IMG/VR virus record: IMGVR_UViG_3300027657_000001
Direction: 5' to 3' (one strand)
DNA from: a virus
DNA: 39,126 nucleotides
In this document: one piece after another, positions 1,894 to 37,279 of the stretch
Position numbering within the stretch: the first letter of the stretch is position 1
Layout: each line of letters begins with the position of its first letter
Made by a program: the position numbers and the translations under genes
Notes under the pieces: model-generated
Seen by the model: only the letters and a program-made list of their open reading frames with translations
The model's database searches: none
Told to the model about the DNA's origin: nothing

Positions 1894-3174
1894 TTAAATA
1901 ATCGTACAAGCTTGTTCACTAGCTTGGCGTGAATTCTTACATGTAGAGAGTATTTTCTTGTAAGAAGCAATCCGTTCTGTTTGGGGCTTTGAAGTCCCCT
2001 TAATGAAAGGTAGCGCTGTTTTCATGAGAGTGCCACCTAAATTATATCCCGCTTGATACGGATCCCGTTCATACAGATCACGAGAGTCTTCTATCCATTC
2101 TAACAACGCATCATGTAGAGGTGTATCAACATCAATGCCAAAGTTAACCGCAAAAGATTCAACGAGGAGATTACAGATACTGTGGGCTGCATCGACAATA
2201 GGCCTCACCAAAGCATCAGTCGCTCCCCGTGTCGTACCATACGCTGCCAGTAACGGATGCATAACGCTCTCAATCGCTTGCGTATTCAATGCACCCCATT
2301 GCTCCCATTCAAGAGTTGCGTGTCTCTCTACCATCAATGCTGTCTCTGCAACACTCGCATTAATGTATTGGGTCGTTTCAGACCAGTTAATATCTGTCGT
2401 AAAATTAGGAACGGTGATGCCTTCGCTTCGAAGCATGCCATCGACGTTGTAAATGTCCGTGGTGCATGTCATAGACGTACGCACAAAGTCACAGCTGGCA
2501 AGAATACGATCCTTTCGAGCCTTCACCTCTGGACGCTCTTCATATTTCAATCTGATTGATTCTAGTTGGCGATCGCTGATAACTCCCTGCATATGCAAGA
2601 TAGCAAAACGAGTCAATATCGAGCGAGCCTCATCCTCATTACGAGTGATCATCATCTCCATGGTTTCTACCACTTCAGGAGAATTGGCATGTGACGACCA
2701 GAGCTGAAGCATCTTGGTATAATACAGACGATCTCGTGGAGAAATATCTCTAAGAGAGAGATAATCCATAATACGGCTACGCTCTAATTGCATATGATGA
2801 ATATCTAAATGCTCTACCAAGCGCGTAAATTCTTGGTGTTTCTTTGCCAGATCCCATTGCTGCTGCCGTGGAAGCGTTCTCATATCGATCCCATGCAATG
2901 AGCGACCTGCATTTAAATCATCCAGCGTATATTCTCTTGTATGATGCATAGATGAACGAGCACGGCGTTCCGGTGAATATCCGTGATACTCTCCAGTTAC
3001 AAGTGTTTGTAATACACACCCAAACGTTTCATGCAAGGTGGGGGGTTCATCAAGAAAAATATTAAATGGTCTTTCTTCTGCTGAGTGCCCACCTCCCCTA
3101 AAGGATCGCTCCGATGCTCCTATAAAAACAGTAAAAAAAAGTAGTGGAAATGTAGTGAATTTATGTAGTACCAT
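1894..3174 (-). CDS. Secreted protein of unknown function (426 aa), encoded antisense within the head-gene module
   Basis: Long ORF with GAGGAG 8 nt before the ATG. The hydrophobic N-terminus MVLHKFTTFPLLFFTVFIGAS looks like a signal peptide. It has its own terminator. Confidence 0.8.
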   Translation of the reverse strand: MVLHKFTTFPLLFFTVFIGASERSFRGGGHSAEERPFNIFLDEPPTLHETFGCVLQTLVTGEYHGYSPERRARSSMHHTREYTLDDLNAGRSLHGIDMRTLPRQQQWDLAKKHQEFTRLVEHLDIHHMQLERSRIMDYLSLRDISPRDRLYYTKMLQLWSSHANSPEVVETMEMMITRNEDEARSILTRFAILHMQGVISDRQLESIRLKYEERPEVKARKDRILASCDFVRTSMTCTTDIYNVDGMLRSEGITVPNFTTDINWSETTQYINASVAETALMVERHATLEWEQWGALNTQAIESVMHPLLAAYGTTRGATDALVRPIVDAAHSICNLLVESFAVNFGIDVDTPLHDALLEWIEDSRDLYERDPYQAGYNLGGTLMKTALPFIKGTSKPQTERIASYKKILSTCKNSRQASEQACTII

Positions 3175-4993: not shown

Positions 4994-5503
4994 TTAGCTA
5001 ACCGGTGACAGGGCCGAAGGATTTTTTAAAGGATGTTCATGCCAACGACTATTAAGATTGCGCAACTCACTCATAAGCTCAAAACGCTGATCATTGATCT
5101 GATCAGGAAGTCTTTTGCTTCCGATGTTTTTGCAGGTCTTTCTATATCGTCTCATGACATCACAATGTGGCTTTTTAATAATAAGATATGGTTCAACTAC
5201 ATCAAGAAGATAATCAAGCATTTCTCCGGTAGCTTGCCAGTTATAAACAGGTCGCGTAAATTTCTTTTTACTCGTCCATCTATAGCGGGAATCACGAGCT
5301 CCTCCAAATGTTTGTTCCAACCACTTAATGAGAATCTCATCGCAACTGGTTACTTTGAGCATGACATGCCATTGCCATCCAGATCCGTATTTACCTTGCT
5401 TAACTCTACCGATGTAGAAGCAACCTTCTCCATCGATGATTCCAGCAAGATAAGCAATTTGAGTGGCAATTTGGTGAGTATGAAAAATAACTTTTTTAGC
5501 CAT
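4994..5503 (-). CDS. LAGLIDADG homing endonuclease (single-motif type), antisense to the intron and capsid gene
   Basis: Motif YLAGIIDGEGCF plus LDYLLDVVEPYLIIKK. ATG at 5503 (MAKKVIF...). The track ORF extends to 5554. Confidence 0.85.
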   Translation of the reverse strand: MAKKVIFHTHQIATQIAYLAGIIDGEGCFYIGRVKQGKYGSGWQWHVMLKVTSCDEILIKWLEQTFGGARDSRYRWTSKKKFTRPVYNWQATGEMLDYLLDVVEPYLIIKKPHCDVMRRYRKTCKNIGSKRLPDQINDQRFELMSELRNLNSRWHEHPLKNPSALSPVS

Positions 5504-5524
5504 ATTGAATCTTTCGTTAATAGC

Positions 5525-5533
5525 AGTATAGCA
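5525..5533 (-). promoter_or_regulatory. Candidate extended -10 promoter (TGcTATACT) for the homing endonuclease gene
   Basis: On the minus strand, tgctatact lies 21 nt upstream of the ATG at 5503. The -35 region is weak. Confidence 0.3.
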
Positions 5534-5723
5534 CATAACGAATGTAAAATCCACGGTGAACGACTAAGTGAGAAAGCAAATGAGATGGAAATAGATAGTA
5601 CAAGAGCTTTTTGTCTCATTTGATGCGATAGTCTGACCTCCGTTCGATAAGACGGAGAGGGAGACCCGAAGAGGTTTCCCCGCCCGAAAGGGTCAGTAGC
5701 CGAAAGGTGAAAGTAACAGAACG

Positions 5724-6362
5724 GTTCTTAACGAAGCGGCAAATAGATTGGGCGTATCCCTTAAGCAAACAGAGGATACTCTTGCTCGTGATATGCTTGC
5801 TTCTACGGCATCGGTTATTAACTGCGTTGGCGGCGTGAACGGAGACAATCCGACTGAAATGACTCGCTCAGACGTAGACCAGGTAGTAAAAGTACTTAAA
5901 GGAAACGATTCTAAACCGTTTCTTTCTGGTATGGCTGGAGAAGACAAATTTGGGTCTGCTCCGGTTCGCTGGGCGTACTTTGCACTTGGAAGTACTGACC
6001 TCATTGGAGATTTGGAGAACGTGTCTGGGTTTATTTCTCAAGCACAGTACCCAAATCCGATGAATGCAATCAGTGATGCTGAGTGGGGTTCTATATCTAA
6101 CCTTCGATTCATGCTGTCTTCAATCGGCTCTAAAACAGCTAATTCTTCTGCAAATGGAAATGACGTATACAACGTCTTCTGTGTTGCACGTGAAGCATAC
6201 GCATGCGTTGAACAAGATGGATATAGCGCACAATTCATCTATCGCCCACCTATCTATGATGGGCCGTTAGCGCAGAACTCTTCTGCAGGGTATAAAATGG
6301 CACAAGTACCTCGAATCTTGAACGATCTCTGGGTACAAAACCTACGTTGCACCCTAGCGTAA
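5724..6362 (+). CDS. Major capsid protein, exon 2
   Basis: The frame is open from 5700. VLNEAANRLGVSLKQTEDTLARDML continues the capsid motif from exon 1. Both exons are multiples of 3 nt, and the spliced product is 316 aa. Confidence 0.85.
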   Translation, partial: VLNEAANRLGVSLKQTEDTLARDMLASTASVINCVGGVNGDNPTEMTRSDVDQVVKVLKGNDSKPFLSGMAGEDKFGSAPVRWAYFALGSTDLIGDLENVSGFISQAQYPNPMNAISDAEWGSISNLRFMLSSIGSKTANSSANGNDVYNVFCVAREAYACVEQDGYSAQFIYRPPIYDGPLAQNSSAGYKMAQVPRILNDLWVQNLRCTLA

Positions 6363-12735: not shown

Positions 12736-13392
12736 ATGGCATTATTAAGTCAACCGGGAAGGTTTGAACAATTAGCAAGTGTTGCACCCGAGCAACAACA
12801 AGCAATATTTCAAATGCTTCAGCAAGCACTAGGTCAAATGCAGGATCCGCAATCAGGATTTAAGCCTATTGCCGATCTTGCTCGTCAGCAATTTAACCAG
12901 CAAACTGTTCCTGGTATAGCAGAGAGATTTGCATCTATGGGGGATAACAGATTAGGTTCGGGTGCTTTTGCTTCACAGCTTGGACAGGCGGGTGCTGGTC
13001 TTGAATCACAACTGGCTGCACAGGGTGCTCAATATGGCCTACAGCAACAAGGTCTTGCTCAACAGCTAGCGCAATTGGGACTTTCTCCTACATTCCAATA
13101 TGGATATCATCAGCCGCAAGAGGGCGCATTGAGCAAAATGGGAACTATGGTAGCCCAATTTGGGGGTAATGCTCTCGGTTCTTATTTGGGTGGTGGTGGA
13201 TCAATGGGAAATATTTTAGGTAGCTTGAGAAGTATTCTTGGTGGAGGGGGTGGTCAAGGAGGCGGTATGGCGCAGCCAGCTCAGATGAACCCTATGGCTA
13301 ACCAATTCAATCAGAACTATGGAATGGCACAGCAGGCATTTCAGCCACAAAGCTCAATGGCAAACCTTCGACTGTTGCAAGGAGGATACTAA
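12736..13392 (+). CDS. Gln/Gly/Met-rich low-complexity protein; probable internal virion or ejection protein
   Basis: SD GAGGAGAGAG. Low-complexity QQ.., GGGG.. runs. Position matches podovirus internal core proteins. Confidence 0.5.
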   Translation: MALLSQPGRFEQLASVAPEQQQAIFQMLQQALGQMQDPQSGFKPIADLARQQFNQQTVPGIAERFASMGDNRLGSGAFASQLGQAGAGLESQLAAQGAQYGLQQQGLAQQLAQLGLSPTFQYGYHQPQEGALSKMGTMVAQFGGNALGSYLGGGGSMGNILGSLRSILGGGGGQGGGMAQPAQMNPMANQFNQNYGMAQQAFQPQSSMANLRLLQGGY

Positions 13393-15260
13393 TGGCAGTA
13401 CCAATATATACCATCCCAAAAGAAGAGAGTGGGCTCGCTACTGGTATCGGTCAAGGTCTCGGCTCAATTTTGCAGGGACTCGCGAGTAGAAAAGTAAAGG
13501 AAATGCAGGGAAGGCAGTTTGAAAAAATGGGTCTCCCTTCCGCATTGGCATATCTTGATCCACAGGTGCAGAGTTCTGCTCTTAAACAGATATTTGCAGC
13601 TCAGCAATTAGGACAGCCACAACCTCAGATTCAAGAGGCATTAGCTAAGCTCAGAGAGCTTGAGGAAGGTGGTGAAATTGGCGAGAGGTCTATGTTCAAC
13701 CCAGTTCGATGGACTGAAGGTAAAAAAACTCCTGAAACTGATCTTGCTAAGATGACTGCTGGGCAGTTGAGAAAATTGCTTCCTAAGGGAGAATATGTTC
13801 CAGCTGACTATCATAAGATGGATCCTGAAGCTCGTGCAGAATACTTAGCACAACTAGAGCAAAAATATGGCGCTCAACAACAGCCTATGTCAGTTCCGCA
13901 ACAAGAATCCCTCCAAGCTCAACAGCAAATGGCACAGCAGCAACCGGGTGGAGAGGGGCTTCAAGGGCCATTAGGGTCTGTCCTAAGGACTCTGGGTGGT
14001 GCTGCTATGCAAGCTCCTGCGGCCATAGCCAGTAAAATACCTAGAATAGGTGGGCCAGCATCGGGTGCGATTATAGGTTCAGACTTATTACGAGCGGGAG
14101 ATCCTGAGCACTCTTATGAAGCTACACCTGAACAACTAGCACAATTGACTCCTGATCAACGCGAGTATCGTGAAGCAATAGAGAGAGATACGAGAGAAAA
14201 AGGATCACCGACAGATTATCTTCCTACCACTGACAATATAAAGAAGTTAGTTGGTAAGGTAATCCCTGATAATATTATTACTCCTCGCTCAAAAGAAGAA
14301 AAAATTATAGCCGATTCGGTAGCAAAATTTGTAAATCTCAAGACCCTAGGGAATATGGGGTTTGCTAAAGCTCTCGCGGGCACCGTTACAGGTATGGCTG
14401 GAAGAAAGATTGCCGAAGCAAAGAAATGGAGTCCTTTAGCAGCCAATACAACTGAGTTTCTCTTTACTATGGCTCCAGGGTTACTTTGGAATGCGGCACG
14501 TGCACAAGTAAAAGATACATCGAGTGAGCTGTATAATAAATTTAATGATTCTGCAGCTGCACGTCAGCAGATGGATGTTAAAGATATCTATGAAAAGTCT
14601 AAACAATTACGCAATGAAGCTAACAAGTTTAAGTCGTTAGGATCTAATAAGCAGCTTATAAGCTCTTTAGAAGACTTTGAGTTGCAAGCAGCAGATGGAA
14701 AAATGAAATTTGCTGATGCTGTGCATGCCAAAAGAGAGTTATATCGTATTATAGAAGAAACGCCCTTCGACACTACAGCGGCAGGCAAATTAATGGATTT
14801 TACGGGTGATTTAAGAGATGCAATACTAGATCAAGGGGTAAAGTTAGATCCTGATCTTGGTTTTAATTTTCTTAAAAAAGCAGACGAAATACGTACAGGT
14901 CTCGCAAACTCAAAAACCATAGTTGAATCATTAAGAGATTCTGCAAAAAAAGGCTCACCTAAAGGTGTTTACTTGAGGACAATGCTCAGTAAGTATCCTG
15001 AAGCAACAATGGCAGGTGTAGCTGGACAAGCTGTTGGATTGCCTTTTGCCAGAGGAGCATTACCTGTAGCAATGGCTCAAGAAGTGGCTCAGATGTATAA
15101 ATTCTTTACAAAAACACCGGGAGCATGGGAAGAGCTTGCAAAGATAGCTCTGGATGAACTCCAAGGTAACTCTAGATCCGCAGCAGCTCGTCTTGGAGCA
15201 CTGGATAAGAAAGCAATTAAAGCAGAGAAGAAACAATCACGATTCTTAACAAGGCGCTAA
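13392..15260 (+). CDS. Large internal virion or ejection protein candidate (622 aa)
   Basis: AGGAGG with a TAATG overlap to the upstream gene. Assigned by position and size. Confidence 0.5.
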   Translation: MAVPIYTIPKEESGLATGIGQGLGSILQGLASRKVKEMQGRQFEKMGLPSALAYLDPQVQSSALKQIFAAQQLGQPQPQIQEALAKLRELEEGGEIGERSMFNPVRWTEGKKTPETDLAKMTAGQLRKLLPKGEYVPADYHKMDPEARAEYLAQLEQKYGAQQQPMSVPQQESLQAQQQMAQQQPGGEGLQGPLGSVLRTLGGAAMQAPAAIASKIPRIGGPASGAIIGSDLLRAGDPEHSYEATPEQLAQLTPDQREYREAIERDTREKGSPTDYLPTTDNIKKLVGKVIPDNIITPRSKEEKIIADSVAKFVNLKTLGNMGFAKALAGTVTGMAGRKIAEAKKWSPLAANTTEFLFTMAPGLLWNAARAQVKDTSSELYNKFNDSAAARQQMDVKDIYEKSKQLRNEANKFKSLGSNKQLISSLEDFELQAADGKMKFADAVHAKRELYRIIEETPFDTTAAGKLMDFTGDLRDAILDQGVKLDPDLGFNFLKKADEIRTGLANSKTIVESLRDSAKKGSPKGVYLRTMLSKYPEATMAGVAGQAVGLPFARGALPVAMAQEVAQMYKFFTKTPGAWEELAKIALDELQGNSRSAAARLGALDKKAIKAEKKQSRFLTRR

Positions 15261-15319
15261 TCGCCATCAAATGCTCCAAAAAGGCAAAGAAGAACTAATA
15301 TCCCTAATATATCAACCAT
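15257..15319 (-). CDS. 20-aa hydrophobic peptide MVDILGILVLLCLFGAFDGD
   Basis: GGAGG 5 nt upstream of the ATG, 17 nt downstream of the RHH gene stop. Its stop overlaps the stop of the convergent gene 13392..15260. Confidence 0.45.
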   Translation of the reverse strand: MVDILGILVLLCLFGAFDGD

Positions 15320-15336
15320 AATAACCTCCACGTTAT

Positions 15337-15498
15337 TTATTCTGTGTCGTATTCTTTTTCTTTTTCTACAGCTTGCGTAAGCGCCCGTTCCACCCAGAGC
15401 GCCATACTAATATTGCGTAATGCTGCTCTGTACTTTACGTCAGCATGTAACTTCATTGGTATCCATACCACTAATTGCTTGTCAGATTTGTTTTCCAT
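15337..15498 (-). CDS. Ribbon-helix-helix (Arc/CopG-like) DNA-binding protein, 53 aa
   Basis: MENKSDKQLVVWIPMKLHADVKYRAALRNISMALWVERALTQAVEKEKEYDTE fits a beta-strand, helix, helix pattern. AAGGG upstream. Below the ORF-track cutoff. Confidence 0.65.
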   Translation of the reverse strand: MENKSDKQLVVWIPMKLHADVKYRAALRNISMALWVERALTQAVEKEKEYDTE

Positions 15499-15539
15499 AG
15501 CACCCTTTCTATAATTATAAATATATAGATATATATAGG

Positions 15540-15567
15540 AATAGCAAGCCCCCTTGCTATTATTTTT
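15540..15567 (+). terminator. Intrinsic terminator upstream of the fibre gene
   Basis: Perfect 9-bp stem aatagcaag / cttgctatt with loop cccc, followed by attttt. Confidence 0.65.
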
Positions 15568-15624
15568 CAGGCGTAGGATGATGGCGCGGTAGTGATTTAG
15601 TAACTTTATATAAGGAGAGCCAGT

Positions 15625-17841
15625 ATGGCTGTTAGAAGAAAATCAAGACCATTAGTGGGGTACGGTCTAGACAACAGTTTGCAAAATTTAGCACCACTCG
15701 CAATTATTGCCAATCGTGCACCTACGACTGCCGATATTGCTGAGATTGGGACTACCTGGATAAATAAATTAGCAGATACCGTATATGTACTCACTTCCGT
15801 TGTAGCTGGTTCAGCCAACTGGGCAACTTCACCTGCTTCAGGCGCAACCACCTTAGCATCGCTTACTGTAACTACAACCGCTGATATCGGCACAGACCTG
15901 ACCGTAGGCGGCACATTAGACGTTACGGGTGCAACTACCGTTGGTGATCTGTCTGTTTCAGGTGCTTTCAATCTCAGTGCTGCTACAGGGCAGATAGACT
16001 TTACCTCCTCAGCCAACCAAGCTGATGCGATCGTTTTAGAAGCGACAGCAGGAGGAATTGATATTCTTGCCAGTGGCGCTTCAGCGGGCGAGGATATCGA
16101 TATCGTAGCCACTGGTTCTTCAGTAAATATTAGATCTACTGAAAATGTAGCCAATGCAATCTTCATTGAAGCTGACGGTGGGGCATCAGAAAGCGTTTAT
16201 ATCCACTCAGATCAAGGTACAGGCGTTGAGTCTATTCATTTAGAGTCGGATGTGGGTGGTGTAACCCTTACTTCAGGATTAGCTTCCGCTGATGCTATTA
16301 ACCTCTCTGCTTCAGCAGGTGGCATTGATGTCGATAGCGCCCTCCAACTCAATCTAGCTTCCTCACAGAATGCTGCTGATGCCATTCGTGTAGTAGCCTC
16401 AGCAGGTGGTATTGATGTGGACGCTGTAGGGTCTGCGGGTGAAGATATTAATATTACCAACACTGGTGGTTCTATTGTTCTGTCTGCTACTGAATCAGTT
16501 GCTGACTCTATAAAAATCGAATCTACTGCCGGTGGTATTGATATATTGGCTAGTGGGGCTGCGGCTGGTGAGGATATAGACATTATAGCTACAGGCTCTT
16601 CGGTTAATATTAACTCTACTGAGAACGTAGCTACCTCTATCGTTATCTCTTCAACAAATGGCGGTATAGACATTACTGCTTCGTCTGCTGAGGATATTGA
16701 TATCTCTGGTACAGGTGGTGTAAACATCTCCTCTACTGAGAATGCTGCTGGTTCTGTAACTATCTCCAATAACGGTGGCACGACTGATACACTGGTTCTT
16801 ACAAACACCCAAGGCAGTTCAGCTGCGGCCATAGATATTAATGCAACCGCAGGAGGCATCGACGCAGATGCTGATGGAGCTATCGCATTTGATTCAGCGA
16901 GTGCGGGTATATCTCTTGATGGTGTGACTGCTTCTAACTTCACCGTAACGGGTGCAGGACAAGATCTTACACTTGCTTCTTCTGGAGGATCGGTTTCTAT
17001 ATTGGCAACTGAAGATACTGCTTCTGCGGTATTGATAACAACGAACGGTGGAACAACAGAAACACTGGCCCTTAACGCGGCACAAGGTACAGGAGCTAAC
17101 TCCATAAACCTCGTTTCTGATGCCGGTGGTATCACCCTTACGTCTAACTTAGCCACTGATGACGGTATCAATCTCAATGCAGTTGGCGGAGGTGTCGACA
17201 TAGACGCTGAGCTTCAGATTAACATTGCTTCCTCTGAAGCTGCTGCTGATGCGATCGTTATTGATGCATCTGATGCTGCTGGAGGTATTGATATCAGTAC
17301 TGGTGGCGGTGATATGGATCTTACCTCAGCTGGTGGTATCAATCTGGTATCAACCGAAGATGCTGCAAACGCAATATTCATTGAGGCAGATGCCGGAACC
17401 TCAGAAACTATCTATATTCACTCGGATCAGGGCACAGGAGCTGACTCGGTACACCTAGAGTCTGATGTAGGTGGCGTAACCCTTACTTCAGGGCTTGCTT
17501 CTACCGATGCTATCAATCTCTCTGCTTCTGCTGGTGGAGTTGATATCGATGGAGCGCTTGAAGTAAATATAACTTCATCAGAAGCTTCGGTAGCTGATGC
17601 TGTTACTATAAGCGCATCTCATACTGCTGGTGGTATAACACTTGATGCTGGTGTAACTCCGGGTGTTACTGTTACTAACGGAACTCAATCGTTCCAGATC
17701 CTTACAGGGTCAGGTTCACCAAATGGAAGTGTCAGCGCTGCTCAGGGATCTATGTATGTAGATGTTGGGGGATCAACAAGTACGACTATACTTTTCGTGA
17801 ATACAGACGGTGGAACTACGTGGTTGGGGGTTGGAGCGTAA
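15625..17841 (+). CDS. Repetitive tail fibre or spike protein (738 aa)
   Basis: SD AAGGAGAG. Many degenerate AGGIDI / STENVA / GEDIDI units, with Gly/Ala/Ser/Thr/Asp-rich composition. Confidence 0.75.
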   Translation: MAVRRKSRPLVGYGLDNSLQNLAPLAIIANRAPTTADIAEIGTTWINKLADTVYVLTSVVAGSANWATSPASGATTLASLTVTTTADIGTDLTVGGTLDVTGATTVGDLSVSGAFNLSAATGQIDFTSSANQADAIVLEATAGGIDILASGASAGEDIDIVATGSSVNIRSTENVANAIFIEADGGASESVYIHSDQGTGVESIHLESDVGGVTLTSGLASADAINLSASAGGIDVDSALQLNLASSQNAADAIRVVASAGGIDVDAVGSAGEDINITNTGGSIVLSATESVADSIKIESTAGGIDILASGAAAGEDIDIIATGSSVNINSTENVATSIVISSTNGGIDITASSAEDIDISGTGGVNISSTENAAGSVTISNNGGTTDTLVLTNTQGSSAAAIDINATAGGIDADADGAIAFDSASAGISLDGVTASNFTVTGAGQDLTLASSGGSVSILATEDTASAVLITTNGGTTETLALNAAQGTGANSINLVSDAGGITLTSNLATDDGINLNAVGGGVDIDAELQINIASSEAAADAIVIDASDAAGGIDISTGGGDMDLTSAGGINLVSTEDAANAIFIEADAGTSETIYIHSDQGTGADSVHLESDVGGVTLTSGLASTDAINLSASAGGVDIDGALEVNITSSEASVADAVTISASHTAGGITLDAGVTPGVTVTNGTQSFQILTGSGSPNGSVSAAQGSMYVDVGGSTSTTILFVNTDGGTTWLGVGA
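16153..16335 (+). repeat. 183-bp internal repeat, copy A
   Basis: Encodes NAIFIEADGGASESVYIHSDQGTGVESIHLESDVGGVTLTSGLASADAINLSASAGGIDVD. Roughly 80% identical at DNA level to 17368-17550 by eye. Confidence 0.8.
17368..17550 (+). repeat. 183-bp internal repeat, copy B
   Basis: Encodes NAIFIEADAGTSETIYIHSDQGTGADSVHLESDVGGVTLTSGLASTDAINLSASAGGVDID. Confidence 0.8.
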
Positions 17842-20135: not shown

Positions 20136-21314
20136 ATGGCCTATAAGAGAATATCTCCCCTACCCATAATTGAGGGGGGAACCCAACGAACATCCATAGA
20201 TGCCAATACGGTAGTCTGTGGAGGAACCACGGCAACGGGTGCATTGCAGAACGTATCAGGTGTTGGAGAAAGCTCTCAGGCTCTCACCTCTCAAGGTGCC
20301 GGAAGTTTGCCCATATGGGCTGAGTTATCCAATGCTACCTTCTTTGAGCCGTTAGCATCAGATCCCAGCGATCCTACAGTAGGACAAGTGTGGTATAACA
20401 CTACCTCTCAAGAGTTCAAGGGGGCTATTGATGGCGGAAGTACCCCTACATGGACCACAAAAGCCTCATCGGGAACATCACAAGGTCCTTATCAAGGAGC
20501 TGCGGGGGATGATACTGATGGTCTGGTATTCGGTGATATTTCCGTAGTAGGTCTGACACAGCTCTATGATGGGGGAACTAATAGTTGGTCTACCAAAAAC
20601 TCAATGAATACCAGTCGTAAGCAAGCCGGTGGAGGAGGAACCACTTCTGATGCCTTGGGATTCGGGGGCGGAATTAACACCCCAACAGGAGTTCTTAACT
20701 CTACAGAATCATTTGATGGAACAAATTGGTCTGCTGAAAATAATATGAATACGGCTCGAAGAGAGCTCGCAGGATGTGGCACAACCGGGTCAGATTGCCT
20801 CTCAATAGGAGGCTGGAATAATGATTTTGGCGGCACTATTGGAACTGTTGAACGATGGAATGGCACAAGCTGGACAGCAAAAACTTCGCTCAATACCGTT
20901 CGCAAGCTCTTAACCTCAACTGGAACTGGATCAGATGCTTTAGCTGTTGGTGGTAACACTAATGCCGGAACCTTACTCGCTACCAACGAGCAATATGATG
21001 GTACAGCAAATACGTGGAGCACCAAGGCCTCTATGTCTAATGCGCGCAGAGATCCTGCAGCTGCTGGAACTGTAAGCGATGCTCTTGTATATGGTGGTGT
21101 AGGTTCCAGTGGCACAACAGGCGTTACAGAGCAGTATAATGGAACTTCTAATAGCTGGACTACTGTCGATTCTATGAATACAGCGCTCGCAACATTGGGA
21201 GGATGTGGATTGGTAACAGGCGCACTTGCAATGCTTGGAGGATCAGTAGTTACTGAGAAGTATGAAGGCGTTGTAGGTCCCACAATAGTAGTATTTGATA
21301 TAACGGCAGCATAG
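20136..21314 (+). CDS. Fibre paralog 2: shared N-terminal module plus Kelch-like beta-propeller repeats (392 aa)
   Basis: Repeats of about 47 aa of the form ..YDG..N.W......MNT.R......G...DAL..GG. Confidence 0.7.
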   Translation: MAYKRISPLPIIEGGTQRTSIDANTVVCGGTTATGALQNVSGVGESSQALTSQGAGSLPIWAELSNATFFEPLASDPSDPTVGQVWYNTTSQEFKGAIDGGSTPTWTTKASSGTSQGPYQGAAGDDTDGLVFGDISVVGLTQLYDGGTNSWSTKNSMNTSRKQAGGGGTTSDALGFGGGINTPTGVLNSTESFDGTNWSAENNMNTARRELAGCGTTGSDCLSIGGWNNDFGGTIGTVERWNGTSWTAKTSLNTVRKLLTSTGTGSDALAVGGNTNAGTLLATNEQYDGTANTWSTKASMSNARRDPAAAGTVSDALVYGGVGSSGTTGVTEQYNGTSNSWTTVDSMNTALATLGGCGLVTGALAMLGGSVVTEKYEGVVGPTIVVFDITAA

Positions 21315-21323
21315 GAGAAGAGC

Positions 21324-22505
21324 ATGGCTTATAAACAAGATGCACGACGTCCAGTAAAAGAGGGTGGGACTGAGAAGCTATCCTTCAACGAGTACTCCAT
21401 TATTATTGGAGGACAGACTGCTCCAGAGCCACTCCAGAATGCTGTACCTGGTGCTTCCGGGACTCTTCTTATATCGCAAGGTGTTGGTTCCCCACCATCA
21501 TTTCAGGTACCTCCTATAGATCAGATGAAGTTCCAGCTACTCAGCGCCGATCCGAGTTCTCCAGGAGACGGACAAGTGTGGTATCGTACTGACTTGGATG
21601 AATTTCGCGGGTCTACTACCGATACTGATGGTGTATGGACAGCTAAAACAGGTATCAGTACTGCCACTCGTGGGTTAGCAGCCGCAGGACAACAGGTTGA
21701 TGGGGGTATCTACTTTGGTGGGTTTACTACGGCTCGTGTAGGAACAACCGAGCAGTATGATGAAGGGGGCAATTCCTGGTCAGCTCTCGGCTCTTTGAAT
21801 ACAGCACGATTAGCGCTTGCAGGTGGAGGAAGTAGCAGCGATGCTCTTTCTGCTTGCGGTGATGCCCCAGGAGCATCAGCAACTACTGAACGATTTGATG
21901 GTGCCAATTGGACTGCTAAGACGAATGCTAATACAGCTGTTATCGGTGGAGCAGGGACTGGATCAGACGGGGAAGACTTTCTCAAGTTTGGTGGTAATAC
22001 GGGAGCTGCAACGGCAATTACTGAGCGCTACTCAGGAACGGGAGATTCGTGGACTAATAAGACCTCAATGAACACAGCGAGGTTTAGTTTACAGAATGGT
22101 GGCTCAGGAGCGGCAACAGATGCACTTTCTATTGGAGGATATACGGGTGCAAGCCCCTTTACAACTGTTGAGTTGTATGAAGGTGTGGGTAATACGTGGA
22201 CTGCTAAGACGGGCCTCAATACGGGCATGCGTTCAGGCGCAGCCGCTGGTATAGCAAGTGGAAATGCCCTCTCATGTGGTGGTAATGATGGAGCAGTCTC
22301 AGCAATATGCGAAAGATATGATAGAGCAGGTAATACGTGGGAAGTTATCAGCTCGCTCAATACTGCCCGACAACAGTTTCCCGGCCTCGGAACAGCTACT
22401 TCAGCATTAACGATGGGCGGTTTTACAACGGTAAACGTAGCGACAGTGGAGCAGTATTCTTCACCGGTAGCAACCATATATACATTCGACCTCACCGCAG
22501 TTTAG
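21324..22505 (+). CDS. Fibre paralog 3: shared N-terminal module plus Kelch-like beta-propeller repeats (393 aa)
   Basis: Same architecture as 20136..21314: TERFDGANWTAKTNANTA..., TERYSGTGDSWTNKTSMNTARF.... Confidence 0.7.
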   Translation: MAYKQDARRPVKEGGTEKLSFNEYSIIIGGQTAPEPLQNAVPGASGTLLISQGVGSPPSFQVPPIDQMKFQLLSADPSSPGDGQVWYRTDLDEFRGSTTDTDGVWTAKTGISTATRGLAAAGQQVDGGIYFGGFTTARVGTTEQYDEGGNSWSALGSLNTARLALAGGGSSSDALSACGDAPGASATTERFDGANWTAKTNANTAVIGGAGTGSDGEDFLKFGGNTGAATAITERYSGTGDSWTNKTSMNTARFSLQNGGSGAATDALSIGGYTGASPFTTVELYEGVGNTWTAKTGLNTGMRSGAAAGIASGNALSCGGNDGAVSAICERYDRAGNTWEVISSLNTARQQFPGLGTATSALTMGGFTTVNVATVEQYSSPVATIYTFDLTAV

Positions 22506-23454: not shown

Positions 23455-24153
23455 TTAGATAATTTTCTTACGGGTGTTCTTTATTTCCATCAAGCGGTTA
23501 CGGGTTTGGTGGTAATGCTCTTTAGGAATGTCCGCCAATGATTGTATTTTGAAATAGTGCAGAATCTCTTCTAGGTATCCCTCCATCGTCGGGTCTTGCA
23601 GTTCGTACTCAAGCTCCTCCCTTTGATCGGTAGAGATCACCTCATACTTCTGGTCAGTGGATTTAAACGTACTCATCTTTCCTTTAACGAACTCTTCTCG
23701 CAATGGTATGTCAGCCACGAATGCATCATCATCCTCAGATTCAGCTACCACGCCAATGAGGCTCGCGTATGCCAAACGTTTCATGCTCGATAGGTATGAT
23801 GTGAGGGTTTGTATTTCTTGTTTGGGAGGGGTGAGTTTTAGCCGTGTTTCAATCCATTGTCCGGACGAGTGGAACAGAATGGTATGGAGCATGGAGCTTC
23901 CATCTTCCAGGTGTTTTATTTGCTGCATGACGGAAAGCCCGTGCTTGGTGAGCGCTGGTCTCGATGCATTGACCACATCAACTAGGTCTTCATAACGGTG
24001 TTGGTAGTATTTATTTTGGTGGGAACGTTTTGCTGTTTGAAACTCTGCCTGTGCTTTTGCGAGGGCTCCCGTGAGTTCATTTATTTTGGTGCTCCGATAG
24101 GAGTTGGTTGGATCCACATCACTCATCAAAAGCTCATCACTTACTCTATCCAT
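23455..24153 (-). CDS. erf: ERF-family single-strand annealing protein, paralog 1 (232 aa)
   Basis: NKYYQHRYEDLVDVVNASRPALTKHGLSVMQ matches the Erf signature region (compare P22 Erf KYKYRSCEDILEGVKPLL). Confidence 0.7.
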   Translation of the reverse strand: MDRVSDELLMSDVDPTNSYRSTKINELTGALAKAQAEFQTAKRSHQNKYYQHRYEDLVDVVNASRPALTKHGLSVMQQIKHLEDGSSMLHTILFHSSGQWIETRLKLTPPKQEIQTLTSYLSSMKRLAYASLIGVVAESEDDDAFVADIPLREEFVKGKMSTFKSTDQKYEVISTDQREELEYELQDPTMEGYLEEILHYFKIQSLADIPKEHYHQTRNRLMEIKNTRKKII

Positions 24154-32784: not shown

Positions 32785-33189
32785 ATGAAACAACGTAACG
32801 TATTTCTCTTTCTTATTTCAATATTTGCCACATTTTGCACTAACGCCTACGAGTTCAAGGGCACCCACTATACTGCACAGATGTACGGGTGCGATCATAC
32901 AGCTGTCAGTAAGTGGATCTATGTCTACTCTTATTTTGTTCGGGGGTGTGACGCGTCTGGCGCTACCGTGATCAGAGCTATTCCTCATGTCTTTGAGAAT
33001 GGTTCTGTAACGGCCGTCGCACTCCTTTCTGAGTCTCATGCGAGTATTCATACCTATCCAGAGTTTGATTGCGTCTTCGTTGATTTATTTACGTGTGGGG
33101 ACGACTGTGATTACCGTGAGTTTGAAAAAATCATTGTTGAATGGCTCAAGCCTACTAAGGTGAGAAGAAGGGTGTGGGTGAGAAAGTGA
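32785..33189 (+). CDS. speD: S-adenosylmethionine decarboxylase proenzyme (pyruvoyl, small prokaryotic class) with an N-terminal hydrophobic extension
   Basis: GTHYTAQMYGCD...SGATVIRAIPHVFENGSVTAVALLSESHASIHTYPEFDCVFVDLFTCGDDCD is collinear with the Thermotoga/Bacillus-type enzyme, including the ES self-cleavage site. Confidence 0.8.
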   Translation: MKQRNVFLFLISIFATFCTNAYEFKGTHYTAQMYGCDHTAVSKWIYVYSYFVRGCDASGATVIRAIPHVFENGSVTAVALLSESHASIHTYPEFDCVFVDLFTCGDDCDYREFEKIIVEWLKPTKVRRRVWVRK

Positions 33190-34035: not shown

Positions 34036-34503
34036 ATGAGCGAGTCAAAAAAAAGGCATTTTCAAATGCCAACGGTGAAACGAATCGTTGAGTATTGGAA
34101 TAACAAATTTACTATTTACGATAAAGAATGTTTTGCGTGCGGAAGAATAGCACCACTTCACAGAGCGCATATTGTCCCTTCTTGGATTGAAGAAAATAAT
34201 CACGTATCAAATCTACATCTATTATGTACTATGTGTCATGCTGAATCAGAAGGGCTGAAGCTCTATCAAGAGTGGTTTGATTATAAGCGAAAAAATGAAC
34301 GAAAAGATCCCGTTTCTCATGTTATAGACATGTGGAAAAAGTGCGGTATTCCATTTGATGAAGATGCTAAAGAGTTTGAATTGTATGAAGAGAAATTTGG
34401 AATAGAAAAATACTATAAAGAACTCTTGCCACGCTATATAGAAGAAACGCTAGATAAAGTTTACTACAATAAGCCTTATGCAAAAAAAGAAATGGGGATG
34501 TAG
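34036..34503 (+). CDS. HNH homing-type endonuclease (155 aa)
   Basis: CFACG...LHRAHIVP...NLHLLCTMCH gives the CxxC..H..N..CxxCH arrangement. Confidence 0.8.
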   Translation: MSESKKRHFQMPTVKRIVEYWNNKFTIYDKECFACGRIAPLHRAHIVPSWIEENNHVSNLHLLCTMCHAESEGLKLYQEWFDYKRKNERKDPVSHVIDMWKKCGIPFDEDAKEFELYEEKFGIEKYYKELLPRYIEETLDKVYYNKPYAKKEMGM

Positions 34504-34571
34504 CTCAGTTTGGTTAGAGCGTCCGCCTGTCACGCGGAAGGCCGCGAGTTCAAGTCTCGTCATTCCCGCCA
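34494..34571 (+). tRNA. tRNA-Asp: tRNA-Asp (anticodon GUC) with encoded CCA
   Basis: Cloverleaf folded by hand. Acceptor ggggatg/cattccc, D stem gctc/gagc, anticodon stem tccgc/gcgga with loop ctGTCac, T stem gcgag/ctcgt with loop ttcaagt, discriminator g, then cca. Confidence 0.9.
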
Positions 34572-34882: not shown

Positions 34883-37279
34883 GTGAACTTAGAAACAAAA
34901 ATAAAATTAGACGCCTTTCGCCCTAGACCATATCAGAAGCAGCCATTAGACGCTCTTTTCAACAAGGGCTATAAGAGAATGCTATTGGTGTGGCCGCGAC
35001 GCGGAGGCAAAGACGTCACCAGTTGGAATATCATCATACGAGCAGCCCTTACGAAAGTAGGGGTATATTTTTACTGTGCACCTACCTACTCACAAGGCCG
35101 CAAGATTATATGGGACTCTATAACAAATCATGCGGTTAAATTTTTAGATTATCTTCCAAAGGAGTTGATAGATCGGAAGAATGACCAGCAAATGAAGCTG
35201 CATTTAAAGAACGGCTCACTCATCCAGATCATTGGCTCTGATTCCTATGATAATTCAATAGTCGGGTCTAATCCTCAAGGGATCATATTTACAGAGTGGG
35301 CTTTGTCTGATGAGCGTGCGTGGCAGTTTGCTCGTCCTATTTTAATGGCGAATGACGGGTGGGCTATCTTCAATTCTACGCCAAGAGGCAAGAACCATTT
35401 ATGGGCTATGTATCAGCTAGCTCTACACTCTCCACAATGGTTTTGTCAAAAGCTTACCATTGAAGATACGGGTCACATTGATATTGAAACAATCCAAAGA
35501 GAACGTGCTTCTGGTGAGATGTCTGAGGATCTTATTCAGCAAGAATATTTTTGCTTTCCAGGTACTCAAGAGGTATTAGCTCTTGATGGATTAAAGTCTA
35601 TATCCGATATAGAAGTTAATGATATGGTCATATCTCATTCGGGAAGACCGAGAAAAGTTTTAAATACTATAAAAAGAGACTATGAAGGCGATCTAGTTAA
35701 AATATATTCATTTGGGTCTCCAGAGCCTCTGATATGTACGCCAAATCATCCTATACGGGTTTTTAATAAGGCCGCTCAAACATATTCATGGAAAAGAGCG
35801 GAAGATATTACCTTACATGATCGTCTCGTGTTTCCTAAAATGCCACTGGGGAAAGTGCAACTTATATCATATGATCTTTGTATGCTTATTGCTTGGTATA
35901 TCTGTGAAGGCTCTTCTTTTAAAAATGGTGTTCAATTTACTGTTGGGGACACAAGAGAAGTGGAACGCATTACGTCTCTTTTGTGTAATATAAATGTTCC
36001 ATATACTCTTTTTGTGTCTTCAAATGGATCATCAACCAATATTGTCGTTTCAAGCACTCAATTAGTTGATTTTTTTAAATCACTTTGTGGAACAGAATCA
36101 AATAATAAGCGCATACCGTTTATATGGATCGCTACGCATGAGATAGATTTTTTTCATGAGCTTATGTGGGGAGATGGCTGTTATTCAGAGCATAACAATT
36201 ATAAAAAATTTTCTTACACAACAACAAGTAAGACTCTTGCTTACCAAGTTCAGCTTCTTGCCAATAGTCTAAATCTTGGATATGCAGCGGGTATAACGAA
36301 CCGAAAGGGAAGTACTGCTACTTTTCCGCACGGTAAAACCTATAAATGCAAAGATTCGTATTCGGTGCAGATCGGCATAAAAGGCTTGAGAGAAAAGCAT
36401 GGTGCCTTAACAAGAGCAAAATACGGAATAGCTGCTCGTATCAAAAATATAGAAAGAGAAAGTCATAAAGGGGCCGTATACAACTTAAAAGTACAATACG
36501 ATGAAAGCTATGTGGTATTAGGACGCTCGGTACATAACTGTAGCTTTGAGATGGGCGTTGAGGGTTCATTCTACGCGAAATATATCGACACTATGAGACG
36601 AGAGGGACGGATTGGAATAGTTCCCCATGAATCTACTTTCCCAGTACATACAGCATGGGATTTAGGTGTTTCAAAAACTGATTCAACGGCGATAATATGT
36701 TTTCAGGTGATTGGTCAGACCATTAAAATAATTGATTGTTATGAGAGTACTAAGCAAGGTTTTCCAGAATATTTGCATATTCTAGAACAAAAAAAGAAAG
36801 AAGACGGATGGATATGGGGAAAGCATTTTGCGCCACATGATATAAAGGTTTTAGAATTTGGTTCTGGTTTGACACGCCTCGATATTGCAAGGAATATGGG
36901 ATTTTCTTTTGAGGTAAGGAGAGATAGGCATAATAATATTCAATCATTACTTCCACCGCTTACTATAATGGATGGTATTGAGCAAGTGAGAACTATTTTT
37001 CCCCGTGTTTGGATAGATGAACAAAAATGCTCTCCCCTTATTAAAGCTTTAGAAAACTATCGAGCAGAATTTGATACTAGAAATAATGTATATAAACGAA
37101 TACCTGTTCATAATTGGGCGTCACACATGGCCGATGCCATGAGATATTTGGCTATAGCAATTAAGTTAACACAAACGCGCAACTCTACGCCTGAAGAGCT
37201 TGAAAAGAGATACCGTGAAGCCGTCTATGGGCCTCAGCACGGAGGATTTTTCGGTGGACACGGTACGCATCAATGGTAG
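34883..37279 (+). CDS. terL: Terminase large subunit precursor (798 aa) containing an intein
   Basis: Walker A-like WPRRGGKDVTS, Walker B-like GIIFTEW, and nuclease-domain acidic motifs (AWDLGVS, FAPHD, HMADAMRYL). GTG start. Confidence 0.85.
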   Translation: MNLETKIKLDAFRPRPYQKQPLDALFNKGYKRMLLVWPRRGGKDVTSWNIIIRAALTKVGVYFYCAPTYSQGRKIIWDSITNHAVKFLDYLPKELIDRKNDQQMKLHLKNGSLIQIIGSDSYDNSIVGSNPQGIIFTEWALSDERAWQFARPILMANDGWAIFNSTPRGKNHLWAMYQLALHSPQWFCQKLTIEDTGHIDIETIQRERASGEMSEDLIQQEYFCFPGTQEVLALDGLKSISDIEVNDMVISHSGRPRKVLNTIKRDYEGDLVKIYSFGSPEPLICTPNHPIRVFNKAAQTYSWKRAEDITLHDRLVFPKMPLGKVQLISYDLCMLIAWYICEGSSFKNGVQFTVGDTREVERITSLLCNINVPYTLFVSSNGSSTNIVVSSTQLVDFFKSLCGTESNNKRIPFIWIATHEIDFFHELMWGDGCYSEHNNYKKFSYTTTSKTLAYQVQLLANSLNLGYAAGITNRKGSTATFPHGKTYKCKDSYSVQIGIKGLREKHGALTRAKYGIAARIKNIERESHKGAVYNLKVQYDESYVVLGRSVHNCSFEMGVEGSFYAKYIDTMRREGRIGIVPHESTFPVHTAWDLGVSKTDSTAIICFQVIGQTIKIIDCYESTKQGFPEYLHILEQKKKEDGWIWGKHFAPHDIKVLEFGSGLTRLDIARNMGFSFEVRRDRHNNIQSLLPPLTIMDGIEQVRTIFPRVWIDEQKCSPLIKALENYRAEFDTRNNVYKRIPVHNWASHMADAMRYLAIAIKLTQTRNSTPEELEKRYREAVYGPQHGGFFGGHGTHQW
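35552..36538 (+). mobile_element. Intein (329 aa) with a LAGLIDADG endonuclease domain inside terL
   Basis: Starts CFPGTQEVLALDG. Has block B CTPNHP and LAGLIDADG-type motifs LIAWYICEGS and ELMWGDGCY. Ends VVLGRSVHN, followed by Cys+1 (CSFEMG). Visibly more AT-rich than the exteins. Confidence 0.85.

Follow-up and report, generated by a model that had tools for sequence, protein, structure and literature searches.

The antisense locus

The stretch of viral DNA considered here, referred to below as the window, is the whole of IMG/VR record IMGVR_UViG_3300027657_000001, 39,126 nucleotides (nt) in length. Between the stop codon of a late gene encoding 622 amino acids (aa; 13392–15260, plus strand; TAA at 15258–15260) and the start of a 738-aa fibre or tailspike-like gene (15625–17841, plus strand) lies a gap of 364 nt, in which two short open reading frames (ORFs) occupy the opposite strand. 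The first encodes a 53-aa ribbon-helix-helix (RHH) protein (15337–15498, minus strand; ATG at 15498, stop at 15339–15337), and the second encodes a hydrophobic micropeptide of 20 aa, MVDILGILVLLCLFGAFDGD (15257–15319, minus strand), whose ATG (15319–15317) lies exactly 17 nt past the stop of the first. We propose that the two genes probably form a self-repressed operon, driven by a host promoter and set antisense within the late genes, of which the window would hold the smallest form.

A first-pass annotation, made from the letters of the window without database searches, had described two minus-strand genes missed by the ORF track. Both ORFs are present, but only one had been overlooked: public gene calls on identical contigs list the 53-aa gene and leave the 20-aa ORF alone uncalled. 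The remaining details of that description, namely a 20-aa hydrophobic ORF, its 17-nt spacing, a GGAGG Shine-Dalgarno sequence (15324–15328, minus strand, 5 nt before the ATG) and an overlap of its stop codon with that of the convergent gene, all hold when the sequence is read directly. The peptide stop TAG (15259–15257) overlaps the plus-strand TAA, so that 4 nt are common to both ORFs, and the peptide has 24 aa when counted from a GTG at 15331. The identical phage has been assembled from two other samples.

The flanking genes are less easily named. Calling the 622-aa protein an ejection protein, as the first-pass annotation did, is not established, since the gene matched no family in Pfam, PHROG or further searches. 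For the divergent 738-aa gene we infer a fibre function; its N-terminal ~70 aa are conserved, and the rest is variable and repetitive.

The ribbon-helix-helix protein

Assignment of the 53-aa protein draws on several kinds of comparison that agree with one another and with its initial description as an RHH protein. Against Pfam, the C-terminal RHH part of HicB was matched with 20.1 bits (E 6e-4) where the cut-off is 21 bits, and PHROG gave marginal HicB-like, ParG-like and Arc-like matches. A word-indexed search with the 53-aa sequence returned only itself, while an exhaustive HMMER search yielded 35 representative RHH homologues of 48–90 aa, with the consensus KRLxxxxPxxLHxxIKxRAAxRNISMxxWxxRAIxxAIxKExxYE. 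Among 37 family members compared with Pfam, HicB was matched by 22 and ParD by 14, and other matches were to FitA, CopG, Omega or RHH_5. A profile of the family matched nine entries of the PDB, all of them RHH proteins: CopG-family StnY, SvtR/56B, ParG, ParD, ORF56, Arc and Omega.

AlphaFold2, run on the family alignment, produced a model with a mean predicted local distance difference test (pLDDT) value of 92.6, in which an extended N-terminus (residues ~7–14) precedes helices at residues 15–27 and 32–51; in this monomer model the strand was not scored as a strand. The top Foldseek matches of the model were RHH repressors and the DNA-binding domains of antitoxins, with template modelling (TM) scores of 0.7–0.8, and among the 50 matches listed, those inspected (ranks 1–20, 22–23 and most of the others) were RHH proteins such as StnY, AmrZ, CopA, ORF56, VapB, Arc, TacA, CopG and ParG (TM scores 0.6–0.8). 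Membership of the RHH superfamily is thus indicated both by the modelled fold and by similarity to the profiles of curated families. As judged from the sequence and the model, the RHH domain fills the whole chain, with no extension. It is predicted to dimerise and to bind repeated operator half-sites.

A conserved place beside the fibre gene

Searches of INPHARED for cultured relatives by megablast, and by tblastn with the region, the 622-aa protein, the fibre N-terminus and the RHH protein, found none; tblastn with the window RHH protein against 50,697 phage records gave no match, and a search of IMG/VR with the 622-aa protein gave no confirmed relative. Two homologues of the 622-aa protein, P0003 and P0004, led to the related contigs L003 and L005, in which they occupy the corresponding position; both contigs carry in the same place a minus-strand cassette headed by an RHH protein of 50–55 aa.

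A much larger set, 80 IMG/VR loci, was recovered by alignment of the fibre N-terminus, a domain shared by 84 such loci, while the length of the fibre protein in the relatives read ranges from 274 to 880 aa. In 68 of 83 related loci an RHH homologue directly precedes the fibre gene on the opposite strand and diverges from it, and an RHH-like protein is visible at the same place in several loci that fall below the threshold. All contigs with members of this RHH family are at most about 42 kb long, and for this reason no member has been seen inside a bacterial chromosome; a search of GTDB genomes with one pattern set found no relative. A clade of phages of about 36–42 kb that has no cultured relatives thereby gains a likely regulator, together with the likely promoter and operator described below.

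Promoter and operator elements

Upstream of the RHH gene, the AT-rich, promoter-like stretch described in the first-pass annotation does contain a sigma-70-type site in a consensus scan, TTGCTA-16-TATATT (15520–15547, minus strand), which ends 21 nt before the RHH start codon, but the site is not significant in the window alone. Significance comes from the relatives: in the 100 nt upstream of their RHH genes, a sigma-70-type score of at least 10 is reached in 16 of 61 cases, where 2.6 are expected and the maximum in 200 shuffle sets was 8. Inverted repeats are enriched in a similar way. In the 90 nt upstream of RHH genes, arms of at least 7 nt occur in 18 of 61 cases (5.3 expected) and arms of at least 9 nt in 5 (0.4 expected). 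Many of these repeats overlap the hexamers of the RHH promoter or lie between them. Examples are TTGACA-ATG-TGTACACATGGTGTACA-AT in L040, CAATGTACATATGTACATTG in L057, TGATAACATGTTATCA in L044 and ATAAAATAGTTGACTATTTTAT in L003.

The corresponding element of the window is the inverted repeat AATAGCAAG-N4-CTTGCTATT (15540–15561), a candidate RHH operator that lies over the −35 hexamer, the hexamer being provided by its right arm. Its 9-nt arm is matched by 3% of shuffles of the region. Within the relatives, the palindrome TGTGTACACA tracks one RHH subfamily (GRKRLAxDxP ... NITITKW) even though the flanking DNA differs, a co-occurrence with a Fisher P of about 1e-4, uncorrected for phylogeny. 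Such a pattern marks repressors that regulate themselves and whose operators evolve together with the strand that reads the DNA. A direct repeat in the spacer and −10 region of the window, CTATATAT-N2-CTATATAT (15521–15538), has a 10-nt register and is a candidate for an alternative or additional operator, though of low complexity and without statistical support. The motif TATATATTTATA is found also in the RHH promoters of L005, L041, L014 and L024.

The inverted repeat had previously been read as a plus-strand terminator. It is indeed followed on that strand by a T-run (15540–15561, then ATTTTTC), and as RNA it would fold with −9.6 kcal/mol (z −0.84), which is weak. A terminator-like hairpin at a comparable position occurs in just one of 33 intergenic regions, that of the window itself, so that an operator is the more economical reading; the hairpin also overlaps the −35 hexamer, where relatives have palindromic operators. 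Termination as the main function of the hairpin was rejected on its weak fold and its absence from the other 32 regions. From its sequence context the element is more likely an operator than a terminator, and it could do both jobs. A search for Rfam families in 14800–16000 found no RNA.

The RHH protein may be mainly a timing regulator of the fibre gene, in the manner of SvtR or of the role presumed for Mnt and Arc in P22 tailspike read-through, with the peptide as incidental cargo. Whatever the cargo, the RHH and fibre genes diverge in essentially all relatives, and SvtR represses a tail-fibre gene as well as itself (PMC5569661), its structure 2kel being the second-best PDB profile match of the window family. 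Against this stand the results of a consensus scan of the 126-nt intergenic region, which found no sigma-70-type promoter for the fibre gene, and the position of the palindromes in relatives, which lie on the RHH promoter side. We regard fibre timing as the chief function as possible but less than probable; it is in any case compatible with the self-repressed operon, and the two may hold together.

Two further features of these intergenic regions were seen in relatives. In L077, a GC-rich unit of ~20 nt (GGCCTACCTGGGCCTGCATA-like) is repeated in tandem four to five times between the RHH and fibre genes. In L068, L079, L053 and L047 the best −10 element ends 6–7 nt before the RHH start and a Shine-Dalgarno sequence is absent; because the −10 is so near the start codon and the Shine-Dalgarno sequence is missing, the arrangement suggests leaderless RHH mRNAs in these four loci.

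The 20-amino-acid peptide

The 20-aa ORF, predicted to encode a membrane peptide that crosses the bilayer once and has an acidic tail, takes up nearly all of the 76-nt gap between the RHH stop and the convergent gene. In shuffles of this gap, a closed ORF of at least 15 aa arises in 41% and one resembling a transmembrane segment in 3.8%, whereas a transmembrane-like ORF combined with a correctly spaced Shine-Dalgarno sequence arises in 0.24%. More telling is the comparison with 22 non-redundant relatives in which the gap between the RHH gene and the convergent gene is similarly short (45–200 nt). A transmembrane-like ORF is present on the RHH strand in 13 of these 22 and on the other strand in 1, where the shuffle expectation is 1.1 (P ~1e-15). 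The nearest parallels to the window peptide occur in L008 (MTFIGIVITIFIIRWLLD, with its start 1 nt past the RHH stop) and in L003 (a peptide beginning MMSYIDLEILVFLLLLFPLCG); both have Asp at the end and show the same stop-stop overlap as the window. That overlap recurs in many relatives and was not counted as evidence, since, for a late gene ending in YTAA or YTAG, about 1 in 6 compact convergent pairs would be expected to have it.

These figures bear on a sceptical alternative, in which the RHH gene alone is real and the 20-aa ORF is a chance frame in an AT-rich spacer, its GGAGG fortuitous. The shuffle rates for simple and for transmembrane-like ORFs lend this some weight, as do the silence of the gene callers, the lack of a sequence homologue of the peptide, and the four to six short-gap relatives (L038, L044, L052, L058 and L063) in which no such ORF is present. 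The rarity of the combination with a Shine-Dalgarno sequence, the near-complete filling of the gap and the strand bias in the relatives argue the other way, and a chance frame is in our judgement rather unlikely. Because small transmembrane ORFs hold the same position in relatives far above chance, the 20-aa ORF is probably a real gene, so far as comparative sequence can indicate. In related phages the RHH gene and, in short gaps, a transmembrane-like ORF recur in place, but the peptide itself has no counterpart in sequence. A comparison by eye of the gap with the 101-aa cargo gene described below, made with the idea of a remnant in mind, showed no similarity.

Variable cargo behind the RHH gene

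The distance from the RHH stop to the convergent late gene varies across loci from −4 to about 1,500 nt. At one extreme, in at least six lineages (L021, L023, L029, L031, L074 and L083), the RHH gene is alone and its stop abuts the convergent gene. Elsewhere, in the relatives checked by coordinates, the first cargo gene starts −14 to +21 nt from the RHH stop, which is an operon-like spacing. The cargo consists mostly of many unrelated small membrane proteins of 18–96 aa, alongside Cys-rich and signal-peptide proteins and, in one relative only (L037), a KilA-N protein. Promoter enrichment in the relatives and variable cargo between conserved late genes give the unit the properties of a phage moron, an accessory cassette transcribed independently within a late operon. 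A terminator for the minus-strand unit was sought in the window, and none was found. The very short membrane ORFs among the cargo (18–40 aa), overlooked by gene callers, are candidate exclusion or membrane-modulating peptides.

One soluble family of 101 aa recurs in seven loci and is found also beside P0006, the closest RHH homologue. Its members (~95–110 aa) stand directly behind the RHH gene, share the motif W..VA..Y ... SKGGGF.F and have no Pfam match; they are located in L003 (12054–12359), L005 (7744–8049), L006 (303–506), L010, L013, L042/L046 and L043.

A putative self-repressed operon

In the operon proposed here, a host sigma-70-type promoter (about 15547–15520) would drive the RHH gene and then the 20-aa peptide gene with its own strong ribosome-binding site, and an RHH dimer or tetramer would bind the inverted repeat at 15540–15561 over its own −35 hexamer, repressing its own promoter. 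Expression by host RNA polymerase would be early, low and buffered, and late transcription from the opposite direction would run antisense through the operon. From its site 63 nt before the fibre gene, the bound repressor may also influence the amount of transcription passing into that gene; an influence of this kind is suggested because nearly all members of the clade have the RHH gene, in every case facing the fibre gene. In the window, the variable cargo slot would be reduced to its smallest content, the micropeptide, most likely with an accessory role at the membrane. Superinfection exclusion, or another membrane-level role, is favoured by analogy with SieA and by the predominance of membrane proteins among the cargo, and we suggest it with low confidence.

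Several observations count against this proposal. The window promoter matches the consensus at 9 of 12 positions, and the region contains 2 promoter-like sites where shuffles lead one to expect 2.5; because the signals within the window (promoter, hairpin and ORF shuffles) are weak, the main support comes from the relatives. The inverted repeat has only an AATAG/CTATT core in common with the palindrome of L034, the nearest relative in the β-strand, and the operator assignment is tentative for that reason. For the peptide, no sequence homologue was found, so that the support is positional and compositional, in a gap whose AT-richness favours hydrophobic codons, and its hydrophobic stretch of ~14 residues is short for a membrane span. 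The DNA from the two other samples is 100% identical to the window, which makes a polymorphism test on the peptide impossible, and a close relative for a test of purifying selection is lacking. Finally, neither an integrase nor a CI-type repressor was found with Pfam or PHROGs among about 35 window ORFs, which leaves exclusion expressed from a prophage without lifestyle support.

A bolder extension of the proposal would see the cassette as a clade-wide antisense checkpoint, in which the repressor, on its operator between the two divergent genes, gates late transcription into the receptor-binding fibre gene and co-transcribed peptides of 18–40 aa block the DNA-ejection channel of superinfecting relatives. 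Channel-blocking peptides would explain the constant position beside large internal-protein genes, and if the idea were true the peptides would form a class of ultra-short membrane peptides not recognised before. We consider it quite unlikely.

The first-pass annotation had suggested as an alternative a toxin-antitoxin-like module, with a membrane-damaging peptide and the RHH protein as antitoxin and autorepressor; a variant would have the late transcript act as a type I antisense antitoxin. Type II antitoxins most commonly bind DNA through an RHH module, and the 53-aa protein has its best family matches in HicB, ParD, FitA and CopG. The regulator-first gene order fits, late transcription would by geometry be fully antisense to the peptide mRNA, and small size and hydrophobicity are typical of type I toxins. 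Yet the RHH gene stands alone in at least six lineages, which does not agree with obligate pairing to a toxin, and the 53-aa protein is without a C-terminal toxin-binding extension. The cargo is moreover heterogeneous, ranging over transmembrane proteins of 18–96 aa, the 101-aa soluble family, a KilA-N protein and Cys-rich proteins, and the peptides of the window and its relatives have acidic tails, where basic tails are usual in type I toxins. The solitary occurrence, the missing tail and the mixed cargo together make a toxin-antitoxin pair very doubtful.

That the locus is a true immI-type immunity region, in which the RHH protein keeps lysogeny by repressing an antirepressor, is extremely improbable: its position is equivalent to that of mnt and arc in P22, and L037 has a KilA-N protein downstream of its RHH gene, but an ant-like gene is absent from the window cassette, the scanned ORFs include no integrase or CI-type repressor, no integrated copy has been seen and the GTDB pattern set was negative.

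Other features of the phage genome

Several observations outside the cassette were made in passing. An intein carrying Hint and LAGLIDADG homing-endonuclease domains interrupts the gene for the large terminase subunit, a GpA-type ATPase (34883–37279, plus strand). Just upstream of this gene, a tRNA-Asp(GTC) gene (34494–34571, plus strand) overlaps the end of an HNH-endonuclease-like ORF (34036–34503). In the structural region, the ORF at 5748–6362 (plus strand) is matched by a major-head-protein profile in the C-terminal half only (profile positions 142–339), and an unassigned 196-aa ORF (5033–5623, plus strand) lies 125 nt upstream of it; from this arrangement of the sequence, the capsid gene may be split or interrupted. 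A 426-aa ORF (1894–3174, minus strand) with no Pfam or PHROG match lies inside the plus-strand structural region and may be another antisense insertion.

Two genes of the ERF family of single-strand annealing proteins stand close together (23455–24153 and 24559–25065, both minus strand), where L003 has one. The ORF at 32785–33189 (plus strand) encodes a domain clearly recognisable as S-adenosylmethionine decarboxylase (Pfam E 4e-25). Two paralogues of 392 and 393 aa lie side by side (20136–21314 and 21324–22505, plus strand), and each matches phrog_27227, a family with no known function.

Comparison with known systems

The closest known system is the ant moron of P22-like phages, the immI-sieA region of Lederbergvirus, and the window resembles this known system rather than representing a new kind. 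The parallel with the immI region had been drawn initially from position, and it is sustained by comparison with the layout of the P22-like phage NC_030919, in which ejection-protein genes (plus strand) are followed by a sieA-like gene (minus strand), two small ORFs, an mnt-like RHH gene (minus strand), arc and ant (plus strand) and the tailspike gene (plus strand). Both systems place a variable cassette between large virion genes, which in P22-like phages encode ejection proteins, and a tailspike or fibre gene; both have a small RHH repressor (mnt in P22) antisense to the late genes, and in both a membrane protein on the same strand (sieA in P22) ends convergently with the upstream late gene (PMC2629481). 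Gene content varies among P22-like phages, some of which keep only the repressor and one unknown gene, and for the P22 Mnt/Arc region an effect on read-through into the tailspike gene has been proposed (PMC2629481).

The differences from P22 are nonetheless substantial. The window RHH protein is related to Arc at the level of superfamily only (E 0.32 for the PDB profile; E 0.027 for the Arc-like PHROG), and its cassette has neither Arc/Mnt-specific homology nor an antirepressor, the arc-ant pair and a sar-like RNA both being absent. In the window clade the RHH gene is near-core (68 of 83 loci) and diverges directly from the fibre gene, the window has as cargo a 20-aa peptide instead of a SieA-like protein of 160 aa, and lysogeny genes were not detected in the window phage.

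SvtR (gp08, PDB 2kel) of the Sulfolobus rudivirus SIRV1 offers a second point of reference. It is likewise a small viral RHH protein, which represses its own promoter and binds most strongly to that of a tail-fibre structural gene (PMC5569661). It differs in belonging to an archaeal virus with archaeal promoters and in having no membrane-peptide partner, and its similarity to the window family, although giving the second-best PDB profile match, is marginal (E 0.01).

The RHH antitoxins of type II systems (the C-terminal domain of HicB, ParD, FitA, CopA, VapB and TacA) share with the window protein the RHH fold and an autoregulatory logic, and provide its best matches in sequence and structure. 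The window protein differs from them in having neither a toxin-binding extension nor a recognisable toxin partner, and in being solitary in several lineages. Some phage morons encode small exclusion proteins of the inner membrane, such as HK97 gp15, and reportedly place an independently promoted gene inside the virion block. Such morons lie on the late-gene strand and are not known to have a dedicated RHH regulator, and the window peptide is much shorter than their products.

An RHH repressor with a membrane protein, set antisense between the genes for internal proteins and the gene for the receptor-binding protein, is thus an arrangement that recurs in a group unrelated to P22. Because the P22-type layout recurs in this way, it suggests a general solution rather than a peculiarity of P22.

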